24,000 bases of DNA from an archaeon (lineage in GTDB: Archaea > Nanobdellota > Nanobdellia > Pacearchaeales > GW2011-AR1): the NCBI GenBank assembly GCA_018697035.1, contig JABHSE010000004.1, positions 20,211-44,210 of the forward strand, given 5' to 3'. This document shows, piece by piece, positions 1-23,812 of this stretch; within the stretch, counting starts at the first letter, position 1, and every line of letters begins with the position of its first letter. Under the pieces are notes generated by a model, which ran no database searches, was not told where the DNA came from, and saw only the letters and a program-made list of their open reading frames with translations. The translations under genes and the position numbers were made by a program.

Positions 1-680
1 GTATTGTATTCGGCTTCACCTTCTGAAGTAATTTCGGCTGCTTTCTGATTACGTTCAGCAGACATCCTACCATAAACCGCTGTCCGAACCGCTTCAATAT
101 AATTGACCCGCTTGATTTCAAACCCAATCAGTTCTATACCAAACTCCGCAACCTTAATCTGCGCAGCCGCGAGAATCTTATTAACTACCCCTTCTCGGCC
201 CAATTCAACATCATTAAAGTCTCCAGTTTCACTGAGTTTCCTGTTGGTGCTCCTTACAATATTCGCCAAGCTGGCCTGTTGGACAGCATTCCTGGTAGCC
301 GGGTCAACAATGTCATCAAGCCGACTTAATGCTTCATCCCGAGTTCCAACAACAGTATAATATTTTTTAAGGTCAGCGATGCGCCATCTGGCAAATGTAT
401 CAACATGGATATATTTTTTATCAGCAGTAATCATTTGACCACTCTGTCCATCCCACTCAAGAATTTGTTTCGAGAAGGGTTTGGCGGTATTTAAAAAAGG
501 AGTTTTCCAATGCAAACCAGCATCATTTTTCTCACCGTACTCATTCACCACATCTACCAGTTTACTGAAGCGTGTTATGACCATCTGTTCCGTTTCATGG
601 ACAGTATACAATCCAGAAAACAATATCCCCACGACCAAAACAAAGACAAGGACAGTAACAACAGCAATAGTTTTTTTCAT
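1..680 (-). CDS. hflC: HflC-like SPFH/band-7 membrane protein; the 3' end is cut by the window edge
   Basis: Absent from the ORF track because it runs off the window. Reverse-strand ATG at 680-678, with GGAGG (plus 687-691) 6 nt upstream. My translation is MKKTIAVVTVLVFVLVVGILFSGLYTVHETEQMVITRFSKLVDVVNEYGEKNDAGLHWKTPF..., an N-terminal TM helix followed by an SPFH-type core. It sits directly downstream of the hflK-like gene, the classical hflK-hflC order. Confidence 0.8.
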   Translation of the reverse strand, partial: MKKTIAVVTVLVFVLVVGILFSGLYTVHETEQMVITRFSKLVDVVNEYGEKNDAGLHWKTPFLNTAKPFSKQILEWDGQSGQMITADKKYIHVDTFARWRIADLKKYYTVVGTRDEALSRLDDIVDPATRNAVQQASLANIVRSTNRKLSETGDFNDVELGREGVVNKILAAAQIKVAEFGIELIGFEIKRVNYIEAVRTAVYGRMSAERNQKAAEITSEGEAEYN

Positions 681-2501: not shown

Positions 2502-3007
2502 CTCCTATTCAACCTCCCCCAAACCGCCTCAAGCTCAACCGGAACCTCATCCGGAAAAAAACCATAAAACGAAGAAGACAAAGTAGGGAAAGAATCCACA
2601 GTTCGAATCTTAATCCACTCACACAATCTATTTTTTATTTCTCCCTCAAAACTAAATTTCTCATCCAAAAAAAATTGATAATTGGCCTCCCTCACAAAAA
2701 CATCCTCACTTCCCCGTCCCATAGTCAAAGTCTGTATCTCATCCACCACAGACGAACCAGCAAGCCCAGTCTCCTCTCTCACAATACTATCTATCTCCTG
2801 AATACTCTTCACCGGCTTAACTTTCCCAAAAGAAAAAAATCCACCCTTCCTCTCATCAACCTTAATAGAATAGTCATGAAAAGTAGTATAGGTAGAAACA
2901 GAATTACTAACCCCCAAACGATACTTCTCCAAAGAAACGCCCTCAATACTATTCAAAACATCCCCAACCTTTCCATAAACTTTAATTCTTTCTTGTAAAA
3001 TATTCAT
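2498..3007 (-). CDS. Hypothetical protein (169 aa), second gene of the DUF1963-led operon
   Basis: ORF from the track. GAGGT lies about 10 nt upstream of the ATG at 3007, and the gene is translationally coupled to the downstream gene. I recognise no motif. Confidence 0.6.
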   Translation of the reverse strand: MNILQERIKVYGKVGDVLNSIEGVSLEKYRLGVSNSVSTYTTFHDYSIKVDERKGGFFSFGKVKPVKSIQEIDSIVREETGLAGSSVVDEIQTLTMGRGSEDVFVREANYQFFLDEKFSFEGEIKNRLCEWIKIRTVDSFPTLSSSFYGFFPDEVPVELEAVWGRLNRR

Positions 3008-4185: not shown

Positions 4186-4313
4186 TCTAGGTTTCCAAGA
4201 ATATAACAATTTAAAAACGTTTGCTAAAGTAGTAATTCCAAAGTAATAACAACTCAACTATCTTTCTCATGAAATATAATAGTAAACCATACTCATAAAA
4301 TTTATATTCTTAC

Positions 4314-4559
4314 CTACCGCTGATCCTTCCGAAACTTAATAACAGTCAAAACATATCCAACCAACTTAAATCCATACTTACTCCCCAAAGCATCAACCAA
4401 ATCCTCACCAATCTTCTTCGCCTCACCCTTATCCCGACAAGCCGACTTCAAAATCGAAATCTTAACCATCCCCTCATTCTCAAAAACACTCCTAACCTGC
4501 TCAACAAATGCATCGCTAAGTCCCGCCTTCCCCATCTGCAACTGCCTAATTGGTTTCAT
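4314..4559 (-). CDS. YhbY/CRS1 (CRM-domain) RNA-binding protein
   Basis: 81 aa. KPIRQLQMGKAGLSDAFVEQV...MVKISIL matches the LKPvvqiGKnGlT...liKvkvl pattern of the YhbY family. Confidence 0.75.
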   Translation of the reverse strand: MKPIRQLQMGKAGLSDAFVEQVRSVFENEGMVKISILKSACRDKGEAKKIGEDLVDALGSKYGFKLVGYVLTVIKFRKDQR

Positions 4560-4929
4560 TCAACATCTCCTCAAATTTCAAAATATCAGCCTTCTTAACC
4601 TTAACCCTCTCCTGCTTCTTAACTCCCCAAGTCCCACTCTTCATCTTCCTATCCTTCTCCATATCACACCGCCTAAAAACATTAACCGAAACATCCCGCT
4701 TCGAATCCCGCCAGTCCTGAGAAAACTTAGCACAAAAAACCGCAGCCTCTTTCAAGTCAACCTTAGAAGCAGAGTCTCCAATATTAACAAACGGACTCCC
4801 AGGCGCAGACGTATGAAGCATCACATCATTAGGCCCAGCTTCAAGAACCAATTTATCATTATTCTCAGCATCCCGCCCACCAAAAACCGTCTTTCCACTA
4901 CCCACAACAAACTCCCGAAAATTAACCAT
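4546..4929 (-). CDS. NFACT-R / DUF814 domain protein (RqcH/Tae2 C-terminal-like)
   Basis: 127 aa. FGGRDAENNDKLVLEAGPNDVMLHTSAPGSPFVNI matches the GRna-eN-eL ... lHa ... GS signature of DUF814. It overlaps the YhbY gene by 14 nt. Confidence 0.7.
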   Translation of the reverse strand: MVNFREFVVGSGKTVFGGRDAENNDKLVLEAGPNDVMLHTSAPGSPFVNIGDSASKVDLKEAAVFCAKFSQDWRDSKRDVSVNVFRRCDMEKDRKMKSGTWGVKKQERVKVKKADILKFEEMLNETN

Positions 4930-4978
4930 AACAAACCAACCAATCCTAACTTTAAAAATTTAACACTATAACATAGAC

Positions 4979-4991
4979 AATATTTAAAAAC
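4979..4991 (+). promoter_or_regulatory. TATA-like box for the 5012 gene
   Basis: 'atatttaaaaac' is centred about 27 nt upstream of the ATG at 5012. The same spacing recurs at most unit-leading genes in the window. Confidence 0.5.
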
Positions 4992-5011
4992 AATATTCAA
5001 CTCCCTAAGAC

Positions 5012-6472
5012 ATGAAAAAAGAGGCATTAATCCTGACCCTGTCGATAACATTCTCACTATTCCTATCCCTCGCCTCCGCATCAATGATAACAATCCAAGA
5101 CGACAAAAGCCTCAACGAAGGAGACACTTGGTACGTCGGAGAAGGATATAGTATCAAAATAACAAGTATAGACACAACCGCACAAATCAGCTTCAGCCTA
5201 GACGGAAACGAACTAGAAAGCCAAACCCTATCACAAGGAGAATTCTACACCTACTCAAACGTCTTCAACACAACCATAGAATCAATATCAGCAGGAAGCG
5301 TATCACTCAAAAACTCCTCAATGAACTCAGACACAATAGGAGCAACAGTTCCCTCCATGACAAAAATACAAAGTGCGGGAATATCAGGGAGCACACTAAC
5401 AGAAGGACAAATCTGGTACGTCAGCGGAGGATACAGTGTATACGCCAACGACATAGACATGGACTCGAACCCAAAATCAGCACAAATCATCCTACTAAAA
5501 GATTGCACACAAGTCAAAGAAGAACTAGTAAACGAGGGCGAAAATATAGATTACAACGGAGAATTCATTGCAAAAGTAAATACGCTGTCAGGAACAACCG
5601 AAAAAACAATAAAATTCTCAGACACATCCCTCTCTCCCTCTTTCTCAGTGCATAGCACAGGGTATCAAACTTGCGTAATCACCTGCACAGAAGATTGGAG
5701 CTGCGAAACTTGGACCGAATGCTCGTCCGAACAACAAACAAGAGAATGCACAGATTCAAACACATGCGGGACAACCAACACTAAACCAGAAGTAACTCAG
5801 GCATGCACTTCCACTCCCATCGCAACATGTACCGAAGATTGGAATTGTACAGAATGGACTGAATGTATAAATAACGAACAAACAAAAGAATGCACGGACT
5901 CAAATTCCTGCGGAACAACAGACAGTAGGCCAGAAGTAACTCAAGCCTGTAATTATGAAACAGATATACCAGCCCCAGAAGGAGAGGTCTATCCTGAAAA
6001 TCAATTAGCAGATACAACTCTACAACAGAATACAACAAGCCAGAATACTCCGATGAAAGAAAAAATCACTTCCCAAATATTCGAAGTAACAATTCAAGAT
6101 GAAAAAATATCCCTAGAGAAATTCTCAAATGGAGTAAACGTAATAAACACAAGTCTCAACTACATAAAAACACCACTGAACATCATAATGAAATCATCAA
6201 AGCTCTATGTGAACTTATCAGGAGAAGAGATAGAAATGAAAATTTCCCCAGAGCAAGCGGTTGAAAATTCTCTTATATTAGGAAACATAGAAAACGTGGG
6301 AATTACAAAACACAATAAAAGAGCAGTCTATTCGGTCACTGGAACAGAGAAAGTAAAACTATTCTTTATCTTCCCAGTCCTATCCGGAATCGAGGCAAAA
6401 GTAGATATCGAAACAGGAGAAATTCTTAAAGTAGAAAGATCATGGTGGCACTTTCTAACATCCAGTATCTAA
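5012..6472 (+). CDS. Secreted or surface protein with two N-terminal beta-rich repeats, two Cys-rich repeats and a C-terminal globular domain
   Basis: Signal-peptide-like N-terminus (MKKEALILTLSITFSLFLSLASA). Two homologous modules of about 100 aa contain EGDTWYVGEGYSI and EGQIWYVSGGYSV. Two 6-Cys repeats of about 41 aa follow (CTEDW-C-(E/T)W-TEC...Q-(T)-(R/K)ECTDSN-CGTT...PEVTQAC). The protein is rich in Thr, Ser and Asn. Confidence 0.8.
   Translation: MKKEALILTLSITFSLFLSLASASMITIQDDKSLNEGDTWYVGEGYSIKITSIDTTAQISFSLDGNELESQTLSQGEFYTYSNVFNTTIESISAGSVSLKNSSMNSDTIGATVPSMTKIQSAGISGSTLTEGQIWYVSGGYSVYANDIDMDSNPKSAQIILLKDCTQVKEELVNEGENIDYNGEFIAKVNTLSGTTEKTIKFSDTSLSPSFSVHSTGYQTCVITCTEDWSCETWTECSSEQQTRECTDSNTCGTTNTKPEVTQACTSTPIATCTEDWNCTEWTECINNEQTKECTDSNSCGTTDSRPEVTQACNYETDIPAPEGEVYPENQLADTTLQQNTTSQNTPMKEKITSQIFEVTIQDEKISLEKFSNGVNVINTSLNYIKTPLNIIMKSSKLYVNLSGEEIEMKISPEQAVENSLILGNIENVGITKHNKRAVYSVTGTEKVKLFFIFPVLSGIEAKVDIETGEILKVERSWWHFLTSSI
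5684..5950 (+). repeat. In-gene tandem duplication (period 144 nt) encoding the Cys-rich repeat
   Basis: The repeat units start at 5684 (tgcacagaagattggagctgc...) and 5828 (tgtaccgaagattggaattgt...). Both end in ccagaagtaactca(g/a)gc(a/c)tg. Confidence 0.85.
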
Positions 6473-6488
6473 TAAAAAAATTCAACAT

Positions 6489-6803
6489 TTAAAGATTTAA
6501 TCGCTCTTCATGTTTCTTCAAGGCATAAGTAGCAATGGACATATAAAAACCAAGCCCGCAAGGAGAACCCTCTCCACGAGATACCCCAGCAAATCTAGAG
6601 AAATCATTATCATTATCAGCATAATTAGACAATTGAAGAATGGCAGCCTGTTCTTCAGGAGATAACTCAGATTTCACTCTTAAAGAAATGTCTTTCCACC
6701 CATCACGATTCTCCACAACACCAGAAACACTCCTGGCGACAACATCATAAAAATTCTTAAGCTCAATTCCAAGAACATCAAAAGGATTACTTTCGGCAGT
6801 CAT
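6489..6803 (-). CDS. Hypothetical protein (104 aa)
   Basis: ORF from the track. Its ATG at 6803 directly abuts the FKBP stop codon (TAAATG). No motif recognised. Confidence 0.55.
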   Translation of the reverse strand: MTAESNPFDVLGIELKNFYDVVARSVSGVVENRDGWKDISLRVKSELSPEEQAAILQLSNYADNDNDFSRFAGVSRGEGSPCGLGFYMSIATYALKKHEERLNL

Positions 6804-7226
6804 TTACAGAACCTCAACAATCTTAATCCAAAACACAAGTGTCTTTCCAGCCATAGGATGATTCATATCAATAGTAGCTTCTTTTTCATCAATTTTGGTA
6901 ATCTTAGCCGGAATCTGTTGCCCATTAGGTAAAGGCACTCCGATCATCATTCCTTCCTTCGCCTCAGTCGGAAACTTATCCCTAGGCACCTTCTGCACAG
7001 CCCTCTCGTCAGGCATCCCATAAGCCTCCTCGGGTTTCAAGGTAAAAGTCTTCTCCTCGCCAACATCCATCCCAATCACAGCAGCATCAAACCCAGGAAC
7101 AACCATACCAGCACCAGCCTCAAACTCCAACGGCTGCCCATGCTTCTCACTCGCATCAAAAACCTCACCGTCCTCAAAACTACCCCTATACTCAACCTTA
7201 ATCTTACTACCTTTTTCAACTACCAT
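6804..7226 (-). CDS. FKBP-type peptidyl-prolyl cis-trans isomerase (SlyD-like, with insert-in-flap region)
   Basis: ORF trimmed to the ATG at 7226 (MVVEKGSKIKVEYRGSFEDGEVFD...). A TATA-like 'acttataagg' box is centred about 27 nt upstream. VPGFDAAVIGMDVGEEKTFTLKPEEAYG and HPMAGKTLVFWIKIVEV are typical of archaeal and bacterial short FKBPs. Confidence 0.85.
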   Translation of the reverse strand: MVVEKGSKIKVEYRGSFEDGEVFDASEKHGQPLEFEAGAGMVVPGFDAAVIGMDVGEEKTFTLKPEEAYGMPDERAVQKVPRDKFPTEAKEGMMIGVPLPNGQQIPAKITKIDEKEATIDMNHPMAGKTLVFWIKIVEVL

Positions 7227-7387
7227 ACAAAACCCTGGAAATTTTCCCTTATAAGTTTTTCTACTTTCAAAAATATAATACAAAACAATTTCAATTCTTA
7301 AACGATTTAGACAAGGCGAAAAGTTGTGAAGCGTACAGGCGTACGTAAGCGTTTTTTTAACGAAGTATAAACCATTAAGAATTTAAA

Positions 7388-9951: not shown

Positions 9952-10275
9952 ATGGAAATCAACGTAACCGACATAAACTTCCAAAAAGAAGTAATAAAAA
10001 AATCAAGTGAAACCCCAGTCCTAGTAGACTTCTGGGCTTCATGGTGCGGACCCTGCATGATGCTAGGCCCAACGCTAGAAAAAATCGCAAAAGAATACGA
10101 TGGAAAACTGATAGTAGCAAAAGCAGCAACTGACGAGAACGCAGATGCAGCATCCAAATTCGGAGTAATGTCAATCCCAGCAGTAAAACTTTTCAAAGAC
10201 GGCAAAGTCATAGACGAATTCGTCGGAGCCCAACCCGAAGCCACAATCAAACAATGGCTAGATCAAAAATTATAA
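9952..10275 (+). CDS. trxA: Thioredoxin
   Basis: 107 aa with the WCGPC active site (FWASWCGPCMMLGP) and a thioredoxin-fold pattern (...MSIPAVKLFKDGK...). Confidence 0.95.
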   Translation: MEINVTDINFQKEVIKKSSETPVLVDFWASWCGPCMMLGPTLEKIAKEYDGKLIVAKAATDENADAASKFGVMSIPAVKLFKDGKVIDEFVGAQPEATIKQWLDQKL

Positions 10276-11107: not shown

Positions 11108-11179
11108 AAAGTCATAGACGAATTCGTCGGCGCACAACCAGAAGCCACAATCAAACAATGGCTAGATCAGAAGTTATAA
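11108..11179 (+). pseudogene. Detached second copy of the last 23 codons plus stop of thioredoxin
   Basis: 72 nt align with 10204-10275 without gaps. There are 5 differences (gga/ggc, gcc/gca, ccc/cca, caa/cag, aaa/aag), all at synonymous third positions. Both copies translate to KVIDEFVGAQPEATIKQWLDQKL*. Upstream of 11108 the homology decays, with an in-frame-breaking deletion and a tag. Confidence 0.9.
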
Positions 11180-12226: not shown

Positions 12227-12300
12227 GAGGCTGTGGCGCAGTCAGGTAGCGCACTGCTCTGATAAGGCAGGGGTCCGCGGTTCAAATCCGCGCAGCCTCA
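12227..12300 (+). tRNA. tRNA-Ile (anticodon GAT), 74 nt, no encoded CCA, no intron
   Basis: Hand-folded. Acceptor gaggctg/cagcctc, D arm gcgc-agtcaggta-gcgc, anticodon arm ctgct-CTGATAA-ggcag, variable gggtc, T arm cgcgg-ttcaaat-ccgcg, discriminator a. A TATA-like 'ttataaataaaaaa' box lies about 30 nt upstream. Confidence 0.9.
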
Positions 12301-12322
12301 TATGGATCTGAAACAAGGACGT

Positions 12323-12414
12323 GTCCGTGGCGAACAATTTGCTCGAATTTTTATTGCAAAGCAATTATAAAAATTTTAGAGTGAATTGTGAGTAAAATCC
12401 GCGCAGCCTCATAT
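12323..12414 (+). repeat. Partial second copy of the tRNA-Ile 3' third, interrupted by a 65-nt palindromic module
   Basis: gtccgtgg (12323-12330) matches the tRNA variable/T-stem gtccgcgg (12273-12280). The module occupies 12331-12395. aaatccgcgcagcctcatat (12395-12414) is an exact copy of 12284-12303. Confidence 0.85.
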
Positions 12415-23025: not shown

Positions 23026-23064
23026 CAATACTTTTTTAAATCAAAAATTCTCTAATCAACCATT

Positions 23065-23139
23065 GGCTTCGTAGCTCAGCCTGGTTAGAGCACTAGACTC
23101 TTAATCTAGGTGTCGGGGGTTCAAATCCCCTCGAGGCCA
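23065..23139 (+). tRNA. tRNA-Lys (anticodon CTT), 75 nt, no encoded CCA, no intron
   Basis: Hand-folded. Acceptor ggcttcg/cgaggcc (one G-T pair), D arm gctc-agcctggtta-gagc, anticodon arm ctaga-CTCTTAA-tctag, variable gtgtc, T arm ggggg-ttcaaat-cccct, discriminator a. Confidence 0.9.
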
Positions 23140-23144
23140 TATAA

Positions 23145-23164
23145 ATGCCATCGCAAGATGGCAT
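23145..23164 (+). other. 8-bp perfect hairpin with a GCAA (GNRA) tetraloop in the tRNA-Lys trailer
   Basis: atgccatc-gcaa-gatggcat, read directly from the sequence. Confidence 0.6.
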
Positions 23165-23197
23165 ATTCTACTCTCTGTGTATTTCAAGTCACGGCAA

Positions 23198-23288
23198 TGT
23201 CGGGGCGAACGATTTGCTCGAATTTTTATTGCGAAGCGATTAGAAATTTTTAGAGTGAATCGTGAGTAATTCAAATCCCCTCGAGACA
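23198..23288 (+). repeat. Partial second copy of the tRNA-Lys 3' third, interrupted by the same palindromic module (64 nt)
   Basis: tgtcgggg (23198-23205) matches the tRNA tgtcggggg (23111-23119). The module occupies 23206-23269. ttcaaatcccctcgag (23270-23285) is an exact copy of 23120-23135. The acceptor strand then degenerates (gaca versus ggcca). Confidence 0.85.
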
Positions 23289-23489
23289 TTATTTATTTAA
23301 AAATCCCCAAGCCCTAAGCGCGACTCCGGTAATCATCAATAATAAGATACTCATTGCAATCAGTGCCAAATAATCTAACGCATCTTCTACTTTAAATTGA
23401 TTATATATAGATATGGACTGAATAACTGCGCTCAAAGCAATTGCTATAGTTGCCGTTGCCATTATCTCATTAGTTTTTTTATTTCCCAT
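23289..23489 (-). CDS. Hypothetical small membrane protein (66 aa, 2 TM)
   Basis: ORF 23289..23534 trimmed to the ATG at 23489 (MGNKKTNEIMATATIAIAL...) to avoid overlap with tfs. Its stop codon abuts the distal tRNA-Lys fragment. Confidence 0.45.
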   Translation of the reverse strand: MGNKKTNEIMATATIAIALSAVIQSISIYNQFKVEDALDYLALIAMSILLLMITGVALRAWGFLNK

Positions 23490-23503
23490 CTGTATTAACT
23501 CAA

Positions 23504-23812
23504 TTAATCGTCTACTCTGCATGTCTTCCCACACTTAACACACTCATAAAACTTCGACTCCGCCTCATCCCCACTCCTCATCTGCCTAATCCAAAAATAC
23601 GCCCTCTTCGACTTACACTTCTTACAATCCCAATCCGTAATCGGGTTAACATTCGTCCCCTTCGCATCAACAACCGCAACAACCTGCCCCTCATCAACCT
23701 CTTCCTTCATCTCCATATCAATCTTCCCTTTTGCAACATAATCACATTTAGGACAACCAACCTTAGTTCTCTTCATAGCAAGAATACAACCACACTTCGG
23801 ACAAAATTCCAT
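23504..23812 (-). CDS. tfs: Transcription factor S (TFS; RNA polymerase subunit M/TFIIS C-terminal type)
   Basis: N-terminal ribbon CPKCG...CPKC. C-terminal ribbon CKKC...CVKCG with the acidic loop QMRSGDEAES (compare TFIIS RSADE). Confidence 0.9.
   Translation of the reverse strand: MEFCPKCGCILAMKRTKVGCPKCDYVAKGKIDMEMKEEVDEGQVVAVVDAKGTNVNPITDWDCKKCKSKRAYFWIRQMRSGDEAESKFYECVKCGKTCRVDD

Follow-up and report, generated by a model that had tools for sequence, protein, structure and literature searches.

A conserved hairpin module lodged in partial tRNA copies beside tRNA genes of Woesearchaeota-like archaea

The stretch of DNA analyzed here (24,000 nucleotides (nt), referred to as the window) contains an intact transfer RNA (tRNA) gene, tRNA-Lys(CTT), followed on the same strand by a copy of its own 3' part, and this spare copy is split by a 64-nt hairpin designated module M, with the flanking pieces of tRNA copy designated X1 and X2. 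The same architecture occurs at a tRNA-Ile(GAT) gene of the window and next to tRNA genes of relatives, and M is a real, structured, covarying hairpin family. The tRNA genes were called with ARAGORN and Rfam (RF00005), and M was scored with a covariance model of its own, R1, the E-values of which are rough as the model is home-made. The features of the tRNA-Lys locus are as follows.

23065 to 23139, plus strand: tRNA-Lys(CTT), intact, without encoded CCA (ARAGORN 23064 to 23140; Rfam RF00005 full length, 69 bits)
23145 to 23164, plus strand: hairpin 1, a perfect 8-base-pair (bp) stem with a GCAA loop in the tRNA 3' trailer (ATGCCATC-GCAA-GATGGCAT; sequence and fold)
23168 to 23197, plus strand: conserved spacer block, with a CTGTG-10 nt-CACGG stem-loop at 23175 to 23194, then CAA
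23198 to 23205, plus strand: X1, TGTCGGGG, copy of the variable-loop end and T-stem 5' strand (original at 23111 to 23118)
23206 to 23269, plus strand: module M, 64-nt hairpin (fold, model R1 and covariation)
23270 to 23288, plus strand: X2, copy of the T-loop, the T-stem 3' strand and the start of the acceptor 3' strand, exact over 23270 to 23285 and then degraded to ACA
23289 to 23534, minus strand: convergent open reading frame (ORF) of 81 amino acids from the ORF list, its stop codon abutting X2

An original prediction, made from the letters of this DNA, had described the intact gene, the GCAA hairpin, the two copied flanks and a distal fragment unable to make a tRNA, and all of these were recovered. 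The copy TTCAAATCCCCTCGAG has exactly two occurrences, at 23120 to 23135 and 23270 to 23285, and no match in any shuffled sequence. The 8-mer TGTCGGGG is weak by itself, with at least two matches also in 8 of 100 shuffles, and becomes meaningful because the local tRNA's own sequence recurs as X1 at every sense-type locus. The distal acceptor strand is changed (CGAGACA versus CGAGGCCA), and ARAGORN and Rfam call only the upstream gene, not the distal fragment. The module itself folds at -20.2 kcal/mol (z = -3.75) and scores 84.1 bits with R1 on the plus strand, with no match on the minus strand; it consists of a closing pair C23206-G23266, tandem G23207·A23265 and A23208·G23264, a stem of 23209 to 23232 with 23236 to 23263, a GAA loop and a TAA tail. 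Two T5 tracts within it (23223 to 23227 and 23247 to 23251) are the earliest oligo-T downstream of the tRNA, and no oligo-T of 5 or more was seen in the sequence between tRNA-Lys and M. The second locus of the window is made up as follows.

12227 to 12300, plus strand: tRNA-Ile(GAT), intact (ARAGORN, Rfam)
12304 to 12320, plus strand: inverted, partly degraded copy of the T-arm 5' half and T-loop of tRNA-Ile (sequence)
12323 to 12330, plus strand: X1, GTCCGTGG, where tRNA-Ile itself has GTCCGCGG
12331 to 12395, plus strand: module M, Ile copy (R1 95.1 bits; fold z = -4.35)
12396 to 12414, plus strand: X2, AATCCGCGCAGCCTCATAT, the exact tRNA-Ile 3' end and 3 flank bases, a 19-nt repeat with its original at 12285 to 12303

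The predicted sharing of the module between the two loci is confirmed, as the Lys and Ile copies (23206 to 23269 and 12331 to 12395) are 86% identical over 51 nt and have in common a 21-mer with zero chance matches. In the Ile spacer the inverted copy reads GGATCTGAAACAAGGAC, against the expected reverse complement GGATTTGAACCGCGGAC, a match of 13/17. The Ile X1 deviates from its tRNA by a C to T change that retains a G·U pair with X2, as predicted by compensatory stem maintenance and not by plain copying.

In every copy M folds as a long hairpin, for which a consensus structure was derived from 7, then 10, distinct copies. At its base a closing C-G (or U-A) pair is followed by tandem G·A/A·G, above which lies a 4-bp helix that differs in sequence yet pairs (ACGA/UCGU, ACAA/UUGU, GUGA/UUAC, AAA/UUU and others), then a conserved stem UUUGCUC/GAGUGAA holding invariant U·G and G·U pairs, and distally a 2- to 3-nt bulge, an A/U stem and a variable apex. 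Pairing reached 96.6% in a MAFFT alignment of 7 copies made without fitting to any model, and 95.5% of cells in a 10-copy alignment, which, being fitted to the model, favors the structure. In the latter alignment 9 pairs are altered on both sides and four G·U pairs are constant throughout, none of 500 shuffles attained any of five covariation measures, and a control with slid partners was only 32 to 55% paired. The model scores about 13 bits on the minus strand versus 84 to 95 bits on the plus strand, and this strong asymmetry indicates that the hairpin is read on one strand, as RNA or as single-stranded DNA. Ten distinct copies, in 8 distinct loci, score above an E-value cut of 0.5, and most of them share a core of about 48 nt at 90% identity or more. 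M is thus a multicopy, short, non-coding, imperfect palindrome with conserved arms, comparable to repetitive extragenic palindromes (REP), their hairpin-forming doublets (REPIN) and miniature inverted-repeat transposable elements (MITE).

The window corresponds to positions 501,928 to 525,927, reversed, of the 546-kb contig ENA ERZ27237598 k141_70902, of which 483,984 to 542,662 (58.7 kb, about 11%) was read. A covariance-model search with filters off found only two M copies in the window; the 58.7 kb contain two tRNAs and two M copies, always paired up, with no M copy away from a tRNA and no further tRNA along 483,984 to 542,662. The tRNA-Lys region recurs in five further assemblies, four at 100% identity and one with a 1-nt difference, and an assembly artefact is therefore excluded. 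The sequence turns up in many samples, and the species is contained in more than 20 metagenomes. The window encodes an ATP-dependent DNA ligase, ribosomal protein L15e, an S-layer-like protein, and methionyl- and seryl-tRNA synthetases (MetRS and SerRS), with TFS, NAC, Sec61-beta, TBP, MCM and Cbf5 genes in the neighborhood, a gene set that marks it as archaeal; the nearest named relatives are metagenome-assembled genomes (MAGs) of "Candidatus Woesearchaeota" and "Nanoarchaeota archaeon". The relatives L027, L029 and L031 have MetRS proteins 84%, 78% and 69% identical to that of the window, and the proteins of a Woesearchaeota MAG (L009/L015) are 55 to 78% identical.

Further M copies, recovered by exact-word scans and synteny walks, are present in at least six other genomes or contigs, so that the condition set for rejecting the prediction, an absence of further examples, does not apply. 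A scan of the genome collection gave 1 true M locus and 3 chance matches, and a metagenome scan gave 7 true loci (5 distinct sequences) and 7 chance matches; an exact 19-mer was required in both, which under-samples diverged copies and brings ascertainment bias to the tRNA-Phe loci. The orthologous tRNA-Lys loci of L009/L015, L027 and L029 all have X1, a hairpin and X2, with the hairpin in the T-loop. The L009 module is almost identical to that of the window, and that of L027 has its apex replaced and an outer stem CGAAAATC/GTTTGAG otherwise found in a tRNA-Phe locus of another contig, while in the L029 hairpin, M', nothing but the CGA...GAG base and the location is retained (15 bits, E = 0.29). 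Module similarity is thus out of step with host relatedness and locus orthology, L027 being diverged and L009 near-identical. The spacer block (23168 to 23197) is near-invariant among the window, L027 and L009, and DNA outside the unit is unalignable.

Hairpin 1 had been placed in the architecture common to both loci. It holds its shape at the Lys locus, with 8 bp and a 4-nt loop in the window, in L027 (17653 to 17672, GAGGGATT-GCAA-AATCCCTC) and in L009 (about 2595 to 2615, minus strand, AGGGAATT-ATAA-ATTCCCT), but it is Lys-specific, its stem sequences are unrelated, and none is found at the L029 Lys locus. There is a loose resemblance of the 3' arms to the 3' end of the local tRNA (GATGGCAT versus GAGGCCAT; AATCCCTC versus AATCCCCTC), as if each hairpin 1 were a small inverted duplication of that end.

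An orthologous tRNA-Ile locus with M is also present in L031 (tRNA at 6985 to 7060; X1 GTCCCAGG, X2 AATCCTGGCAGCCTCATAT), and those of L029 (4099 to 4172) and L032 (6420 to 6496) are empty, with the tRNA inverted and co-directional with L15e and only a small hairpin and a T-run after it. The orientation of tRNA-Ile(GAT) between L15e and the next gene in the window and L031 is opposite to that in L029 and L032, M being present where the tRNA is convergent with the downstream gene and absent in the inverted, co-directional state. At all six sense-type loci a convergent gene starts within about 45 nt of X2.

At the tRNA-Phe loci (L011/L012/L024 and L017, from other metagenomes) M runs antisense to the tRNA. 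In one case it takes the place of nt 41 to 42 (about position 40/43) in an upstream tandem gene copy that includes the promoter and the first two-thirds of the gene; in L017 this repeat measures 97 nt at 99% identity. A second copy in L017, M2, lies 20 nt beyond the tRNA-Phe gene and splits a 17-nt copy of its 3' end at 65/66 (TGGGGCTG, M2, GGAGAATC); its apex is degraded and it scores 62.9 bits. L011 is without the whole insert of M2 and fragment, and its bare tRNA end represents an empty site. At the contig end of L017 (2139 to 2184) two perfect tandem 23-nt units (CCCACCACCCACCAGCGAAGCGT) sit just past a third partial copy of the tRNA-Phe promoter and the GAGAATCGAAC unit. In L013 and L014 M adjoins T-arm-like pieces in incomplete context. 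The motif CACGGCA(A/G)TG precedes the T-stem 5' strand both in the unrelated L013 locus (417 to 460, minus strand) and in the window (23190 to 23199), and in L013 is followed by uninterrupted CCCAGGTTCAAAT with M on the opposite side; judging by this motif, part of the spacer may travel with the module. The proposal that insertion is always between T-stem position 53 and the T-loop therefore stands for the sense class (52/53) and fails at the tRNA-Phe loci, where M is inverted and lies at about 40/43 and at 65/66. The inverted T-arm copy in the spacer, the other tRNA positions and the opposite orientation had all been overlooked.

The flanks match the local tRNA in seven loci and at least three tRNA types, in agreement with the claim that they are locus-derived and that the module is the shared part. 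Flanks of the Ile loci follow the T-stem of the lineage: L031, with CCAGG/CCTGG, has flanks equal to its own T-stem, and the window has CGTGG/CCGCG beside a tRNA with CGCGG/CCGCG. The Lys X2 likewise follows lineage, with CCCCT in the window and L027 versus CCCCC in L009 and L029, and CGAGGCC versus TGAGGCC. Because they share these lineage-specific T-stem changes, the flanks track the local tRNA. The spacer stretch ATTTGAAACACCGACA of L029 is 88% complementary to tRNA nt 45 to 60 (16 nt), and the L031 spacer holds a 16-nt inverted copy of the same nucleotides, also at 88%; the Lys spacer of the window is a degraded but recognizable homolog of the inverted T-arm copy in L029. The plan of the unit is accordingly direct (the gene), inverted (a partial T-arm) and direct (X1-M-X2). 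Exact direct repeats of the tRNA 3' part at M loci measure 16, 19, 20, 21 and 36 nt. The longest is a perfect repeat in L029, AATCCCCCTGAGGCCATTTGAAACACCGACAGTCGG, which flanks GGG plus M' and is bounded by GTCGG microhomology, so that this locus has exactly the form of a tandem duplication between the two microhomologies in which M' takes the place of TTCA in the second copy.

M is tentatively interpreted as a non-autonomous, REPIN- or MITE-like hairpin repeat living in locally duplicated tRNA ends; this reading is placed first and that of a functional trailer second, and the two are not mutually exclusive. The family would then comprise non-coding, strand-specific hairpin repeats of about 65 to 75 nt within redundant tRNA pieces of Woesearchaeota-like archaea. 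The last third of tRNA-Lys would have been duplicated just downstream of the gene, within a direct-inverted-direct rearrangement of the T-arm, itself a natural quasi-palindrome, and the hairpin would have been placed in the T-loop of the spare direct copy, leaving the essential gene untouched. Copies may be renewed or exchanged among sites, either through transposition of the strand in folded form or through gene conversion with the conserved T-loop as its guide, and the core would in this way stay almost the same in all loci and genomes. Loss, giving empty sites, and re-homogenization with the tRNA would both be possible through the short direct repeats, and the copied T-stem strands would lengthen the hairpin and stay paired. 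Since the first oligo-T after the tRNA lies inside the hairpin, M would necessarily be part of the tRNA 3' trailer, and it probably stops tRNA transcription ahead of the convergent gene. A repeat is favored by the occurrence of M at several tRNA types and positions and in both orientations, by presence/absence polymorphism (L017 versus L011, and the empty tRNA-Ile loci of L029 and L032) together with the degraded M2, by module variants that are common to unrelated loci yet differ between orthologous ones, and by duplication signatures (the 36-nt repeat of L029, the inverted T-arms of L029 and L031 and the 97-nt tandem of L017).

Several observations weigh against this interpretation. The whole unit, including the non-tRNA spacer, is kept at orthologous Lys loci in four genomes with proteins 55 to 84% identical, which points to purifying selection, and its retention amid unalignable intergenic DNA fits a host function at least as well. 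The 8-nt island X1 would be hard to homogenize by gene conversion. High occupancy in a streamlined genome (8 of the 10 tRNA loci seen, the tRNA-Phe loci having been found by searching for M) would be unusual for junk DNA, and the association with tRNAs alone derives from about 11% of one genome (58.7 kb of the 546-kb contig). No target-site duplication directly flanks M, and no transposase, RAYT-like, HUH or integrase gene was present in Pfam gene tables within about 59 kb.

The second reading, which is possible but less probable than the first, is that the trailer (spacer, X1, M and X2) is a selected RNA element of the tRNA transcription unit, working in cis or as a functional non-coding RNA. 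The hairpin M would bind a protein and carry two oligo-U terminators that halt the strong tRNA promoter before the convergent gene, and the T-arm mimic and the spacer complementary to tRNA nt 45 to 60 would interact with the tRNA body in folding or 3' processing, which would explain why mimic and spacer stay matched to the tRNA. Conservation of the unit at orthologous loci over deep divergence, when flanking DNA is unalignable, is consistent with this, as are the lineage-specific T-stem substitutions followed by X1 and X2, the covariation, invariant G·U pairs and strand specificity of M, and the 88% complementarity to the tRNA in L029 and L031. So too are the arrangement of oligo-T, with none of 5 or more between tRNA and M and the first within M, and the convergent gene at six of six sense loci set beside two empty, co-directional tRNA-Ile loci with a plain hairpin and T-run. 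A trailer function fits poorly with the tRNA-Phe modules, which are antisense, occur both upstream and downstream and sit elsewhere in the tRNA, and with the existence of one degraded copy and one orthologous site without M. Close relatives differ by swaps of the apex and outer stem, the window itself has a decayed distal acceptor strand, and the inverted spacer copy does not track the T-stem (13/17 in the window, with 1/5 in the T-stem part). A more specific form, which is rather doubtful, makes the unit a previously unknown functional class, a tRNA-trailer RNA of DPANN archaea in which a protein-binding hairpin is grafted into a T-arm mimic, with an anti-T-arm strand upstream and the mimic matched by selection; such an RNA would either regulate how the neighboring tRNA is folded, processed at its 3' end or terminated, or serve as a decoy to an enzyme or integrase that recognizes the T-arm, and the tRNA-Phe copies would be relics or antisense variants.

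An integrative-element remnant is improbable. On this account the tRNA and the downstream fragment would be attachment sites (attL and attR) from a tyrosine-integrase crossover in the T-loop, with the element mostly deleted and M either element-derived arm sequence or an insertion locking the attR core. The T-loop is reportedly a documented crossover sublocation for integrases (Williams, 2002), and the left edge of M is the T-stem/T-loop boundary in seven loci. The inversion of tRNA-Ile between relatives is in keeping with such an origin, and in L027 a tyrosine integrase and small ORFs adjoin an orphan tRNA-Ile 5' fragment of 19 nt where the window has tRNA-Ile and M. A partial 3' tRNA copy downstream of the gene as a direct repeat is also a classic integration footprint (PMC9897764). 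Here, however, the repeats are only 20 to 60 nt apart, no integrase or cargo occurs at any M locus, M lies within the repeat and not beside it, and the spacer is an inverted tRNA copy and not foreign DNA. The 36-nt repeat of L029 takes in non-tRNA flank, as a tandem duplication would, the upstream Phe copy with its promoter and 5' two-thirds is not produced by integration, and M was absent from IMG/VR, the INPHARED phages and PLSDB plasmids. A simple attL/attR pair is excluded; the repeats are present, but the interval of 20 to 60 nt is without integrase or cargo.

The L027 region at 4204 to 7361 contains the tyrosine integrase (6201 to 7286, minus strand; Pfam Phage_integrase, 4e-13), several small ORFs and, at 7343 to 7361, the orphan fragment, 19 nt identical to the window tRNA-Ile, with its promoter. 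Synteny with the window ends exactly at this fragment, and no intact tRNA-Ile was found within 21 kb. The site looks like an integrated element or an integrase-mediated rearrangement with its breakpoint in the D-loop. Integrase-driven rearrangement at tRNA genes does occur in this clade and could be a source of spare tRNA pieces.

It is very improbable that these loci are disrupted tRNA genes, in which M would be a non-canonical archaeal intron or would link the parts of a split or permuted tRNA, and in which splicing endonuclease would join the fragment as a functional 3' piece. M has the size and hairpin shape of an intron, and archaeal introns occur at non-canonical positions, including the T-arm, with similar introns in different tRNAs (PMC3293823). 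Against this, the 3-nt CGA and GAG face each other and are not staggered by a 4-bp helix, removal of M does not restore the T-loop, and there is no 5' partner (the spacer has no significant similarity to the tRNA 5' part); an adjacent complete tRNA has the same anticodon, the fragment in the window has a degraded acceptor strand and the Phe copies are antisense.

An intron or split tRNA of the bulge-helix-bulge (BHB) type is excluded in particular, since predicted structures of 7 loci and inspection revealed no such motif; CGA and GAG at the base of M are directly opposed, forming C-G and tandem G·A without a staggered bulge, and the 3' side of the base has a 9- to 13-nt single strand. Excision of M would leave 4 or 6 G's instead of 5, the joined X1 and X2 having the wrong T-stem length or being without TTCA. 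A decayed tRNA 5' part was rejected as the source of the spacer, as an alignment of the whole Lys spacer scored below the shuffle mean. A kink-turn or L7Ae-bound small RNA was rejected because the unpaired stretch is on the wrong strand despite the tandem G·A, a C/D or H/ACA guide because no RUGAUGA/CUGA or ACA box is at the required places, and a guide antisense to tRNA-Phe that leaves 1 nt unpaired because at Lys and Ile the flanks have sense orientation and the number of nucleotides left uncovered ranges from 0 to 4. Inspection of sequence and folds ruled out a hammerhead core, and an oligo-U terminator for the convergent gene was dismissed since the antisense strand has no T-run longer than 3. 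An integron attC site was also discarded, as the ends of M (GGCGAAC...GTGAGTA or CGAAAATC...GTTTGAG) are not R''/R' boxes and neither a cassette nor an integrase is present. A 12-nt match to M within the L027 element lies inside an ORF and is a chance match, and chance as a source of the architecture at the M loci is excluded.

Searches of Rfam 15 at the gathering threshold returned tRNA only, and with E up to 10 nothing on M except weak matches resting on tRNA-like sequence, HPnc0260 among them at 26 bits versus a threshold of 59 bits. Module patterns scanned against IMG/VR gave one match, by chance, and the INPHARED phages gave three weak matches at E = 0.9 and no M; the PLSDB plasmids gave none. 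The libraries and literature searched contain no description of a tRNA-linked element of this kind.

Among known systems, REP and REPIN sequences, reportedly described by Bertels and Rainey in 2011, and the hairpin-type non-autonomous elements (PATEs) related to IS200/IS605, reportedly described by Ton-Hoang and colleagues, resemble M in being short (tens of nt), non-coding and multicopy. Each forms an imperfect hairpin whose arms are conserved and whose loop varies, is read on one strand only, tolerates G·T pairs and bulges, has no transposase of its own and makes little or no target duplication. They differ in that REPIN families are bacterial (with RAYT), that IS200/IS605 have two different end hairpins, and that these repeats are scattered in ordinary intergenic DNA, whereas M was seen only inside tRNA gene copies, ends in CGA...GAG with tandem G·A instead of GTAG-REP, and has no RAYT or TnpA in the roughly 59 kb around it.

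Integrative elements at tRNA genes are said to have been treated earlier by Reiter (1989) and Williams (2002). The fragments of attR type that they leave share with the M loci an intact tRNA followed by a direct repeat of the 3' part starting in the T-arm, and tRNA genes of this clade are likewise rearrangement hotspots, as seen from the L027 integrase beside the orphan tRNA-Ile piece. The published repeats lie 9 to 121 kb apart and enclose an element with an integrase (PMC9897764), whereas at M loci 20 to 60 nt lie between the repeats, consisting of an inverted tRNA copy, and a hairpin interrupts the repeat.

Tandem inversion duplications, reported by Kugelberg, Roth and colleagues in 2010 from Salmonella under selection, reportedly have kb-scale units; like the M loci they place a short segment in direct-inverted-direct order, start from a natural stem-loop and have junctions remodeled so that the palindrome is broken, but the units of the M loci are 20 to 40 nt long, are inherited stably and occur together with a shared hairpin insert. 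Archaeal integrons are said to have been described by Ghaly and colleagues in 2022, and their attC sites resemble M as folded, strand-specific single-strand hairpins with a conserved base, extrahelical bases and a variable apex; M differs in having no R''/R' (RYYYAAC/GTTRRRY) boxes, cassette ORF, array or nearby IntI. Transposed tRNA introns, and tRNA fragments scattered by a mobile element, have reportedly been discussed for Archaea by Fujishima and colleagues (2010). Like archaeal tRNA introns, M is a near-identical short insert in different tRNAs at unusual positions, with partial copies near a full gene; those introns sit in functional genes and carry a BHB motif for splicing, in contrast to M, which is in a non-functional spare copy without BHB and can be antisense. 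For transposed non-canonical archaeal introns, too, a link to recombination at tRNA genes is proposed (PMC3293823).

Other repeats were noted in the window. Positions 10204 to 10275 and 11108 to 11179 form a 72-nt direct repeat (93% identical, ending in TAA), the first copy being the 3' end of a thioredoxin-like ORF (9952 to 10275) and the second an orphan about 900 nt away, past a NUDIX gene; this is another partial 3'-end duplication in the neighborhood. The S-layer-like ORF (5012 to 6472) has internal tandem repeats at 5681 to 5954 with a 144-nt period (78 nt at 79%; 41 nt at 71%). In L029 (10001 to 12009) MetRS is split into a 467-amino-acid catalytic protein, a chorismate-mutase-like ORF and a 122-amino-acid tRNA_bind domain protein, and the short MetRS form (78% coverage) was also found in several other relatives in the list of homologs.

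DPANN archaea have very small genomes with single-copy tRNA genes, and extra structured DNA long fixed beside tRNA genes therefore needs explaining. The prediction took the module for the part in common, with mobility or a function as probable properties, and the comparative data, which describe a conserved, covarying hairpin family, agree with it. For annotators, the covariance model and the rule "tRNA, inverted T-arm, X1, hairpin, X2" identify such loci and spare them pseudo-tRNA calls or blank loci. If the unit is a trailer RNA, it would add a layer of control of tRNA expression through a T-arm mimic co-evolving with the tRNA. If M is a selfish repeat, it would, to our knowledge, be the first REPIN-like element described in these archaea, with spare tRNA ends as its unusual niche, and would offer a handle on the duplication, inversion and fragmentation of tRNA genes and so on the origin of disrupted and split tRNA genes in Archaea.

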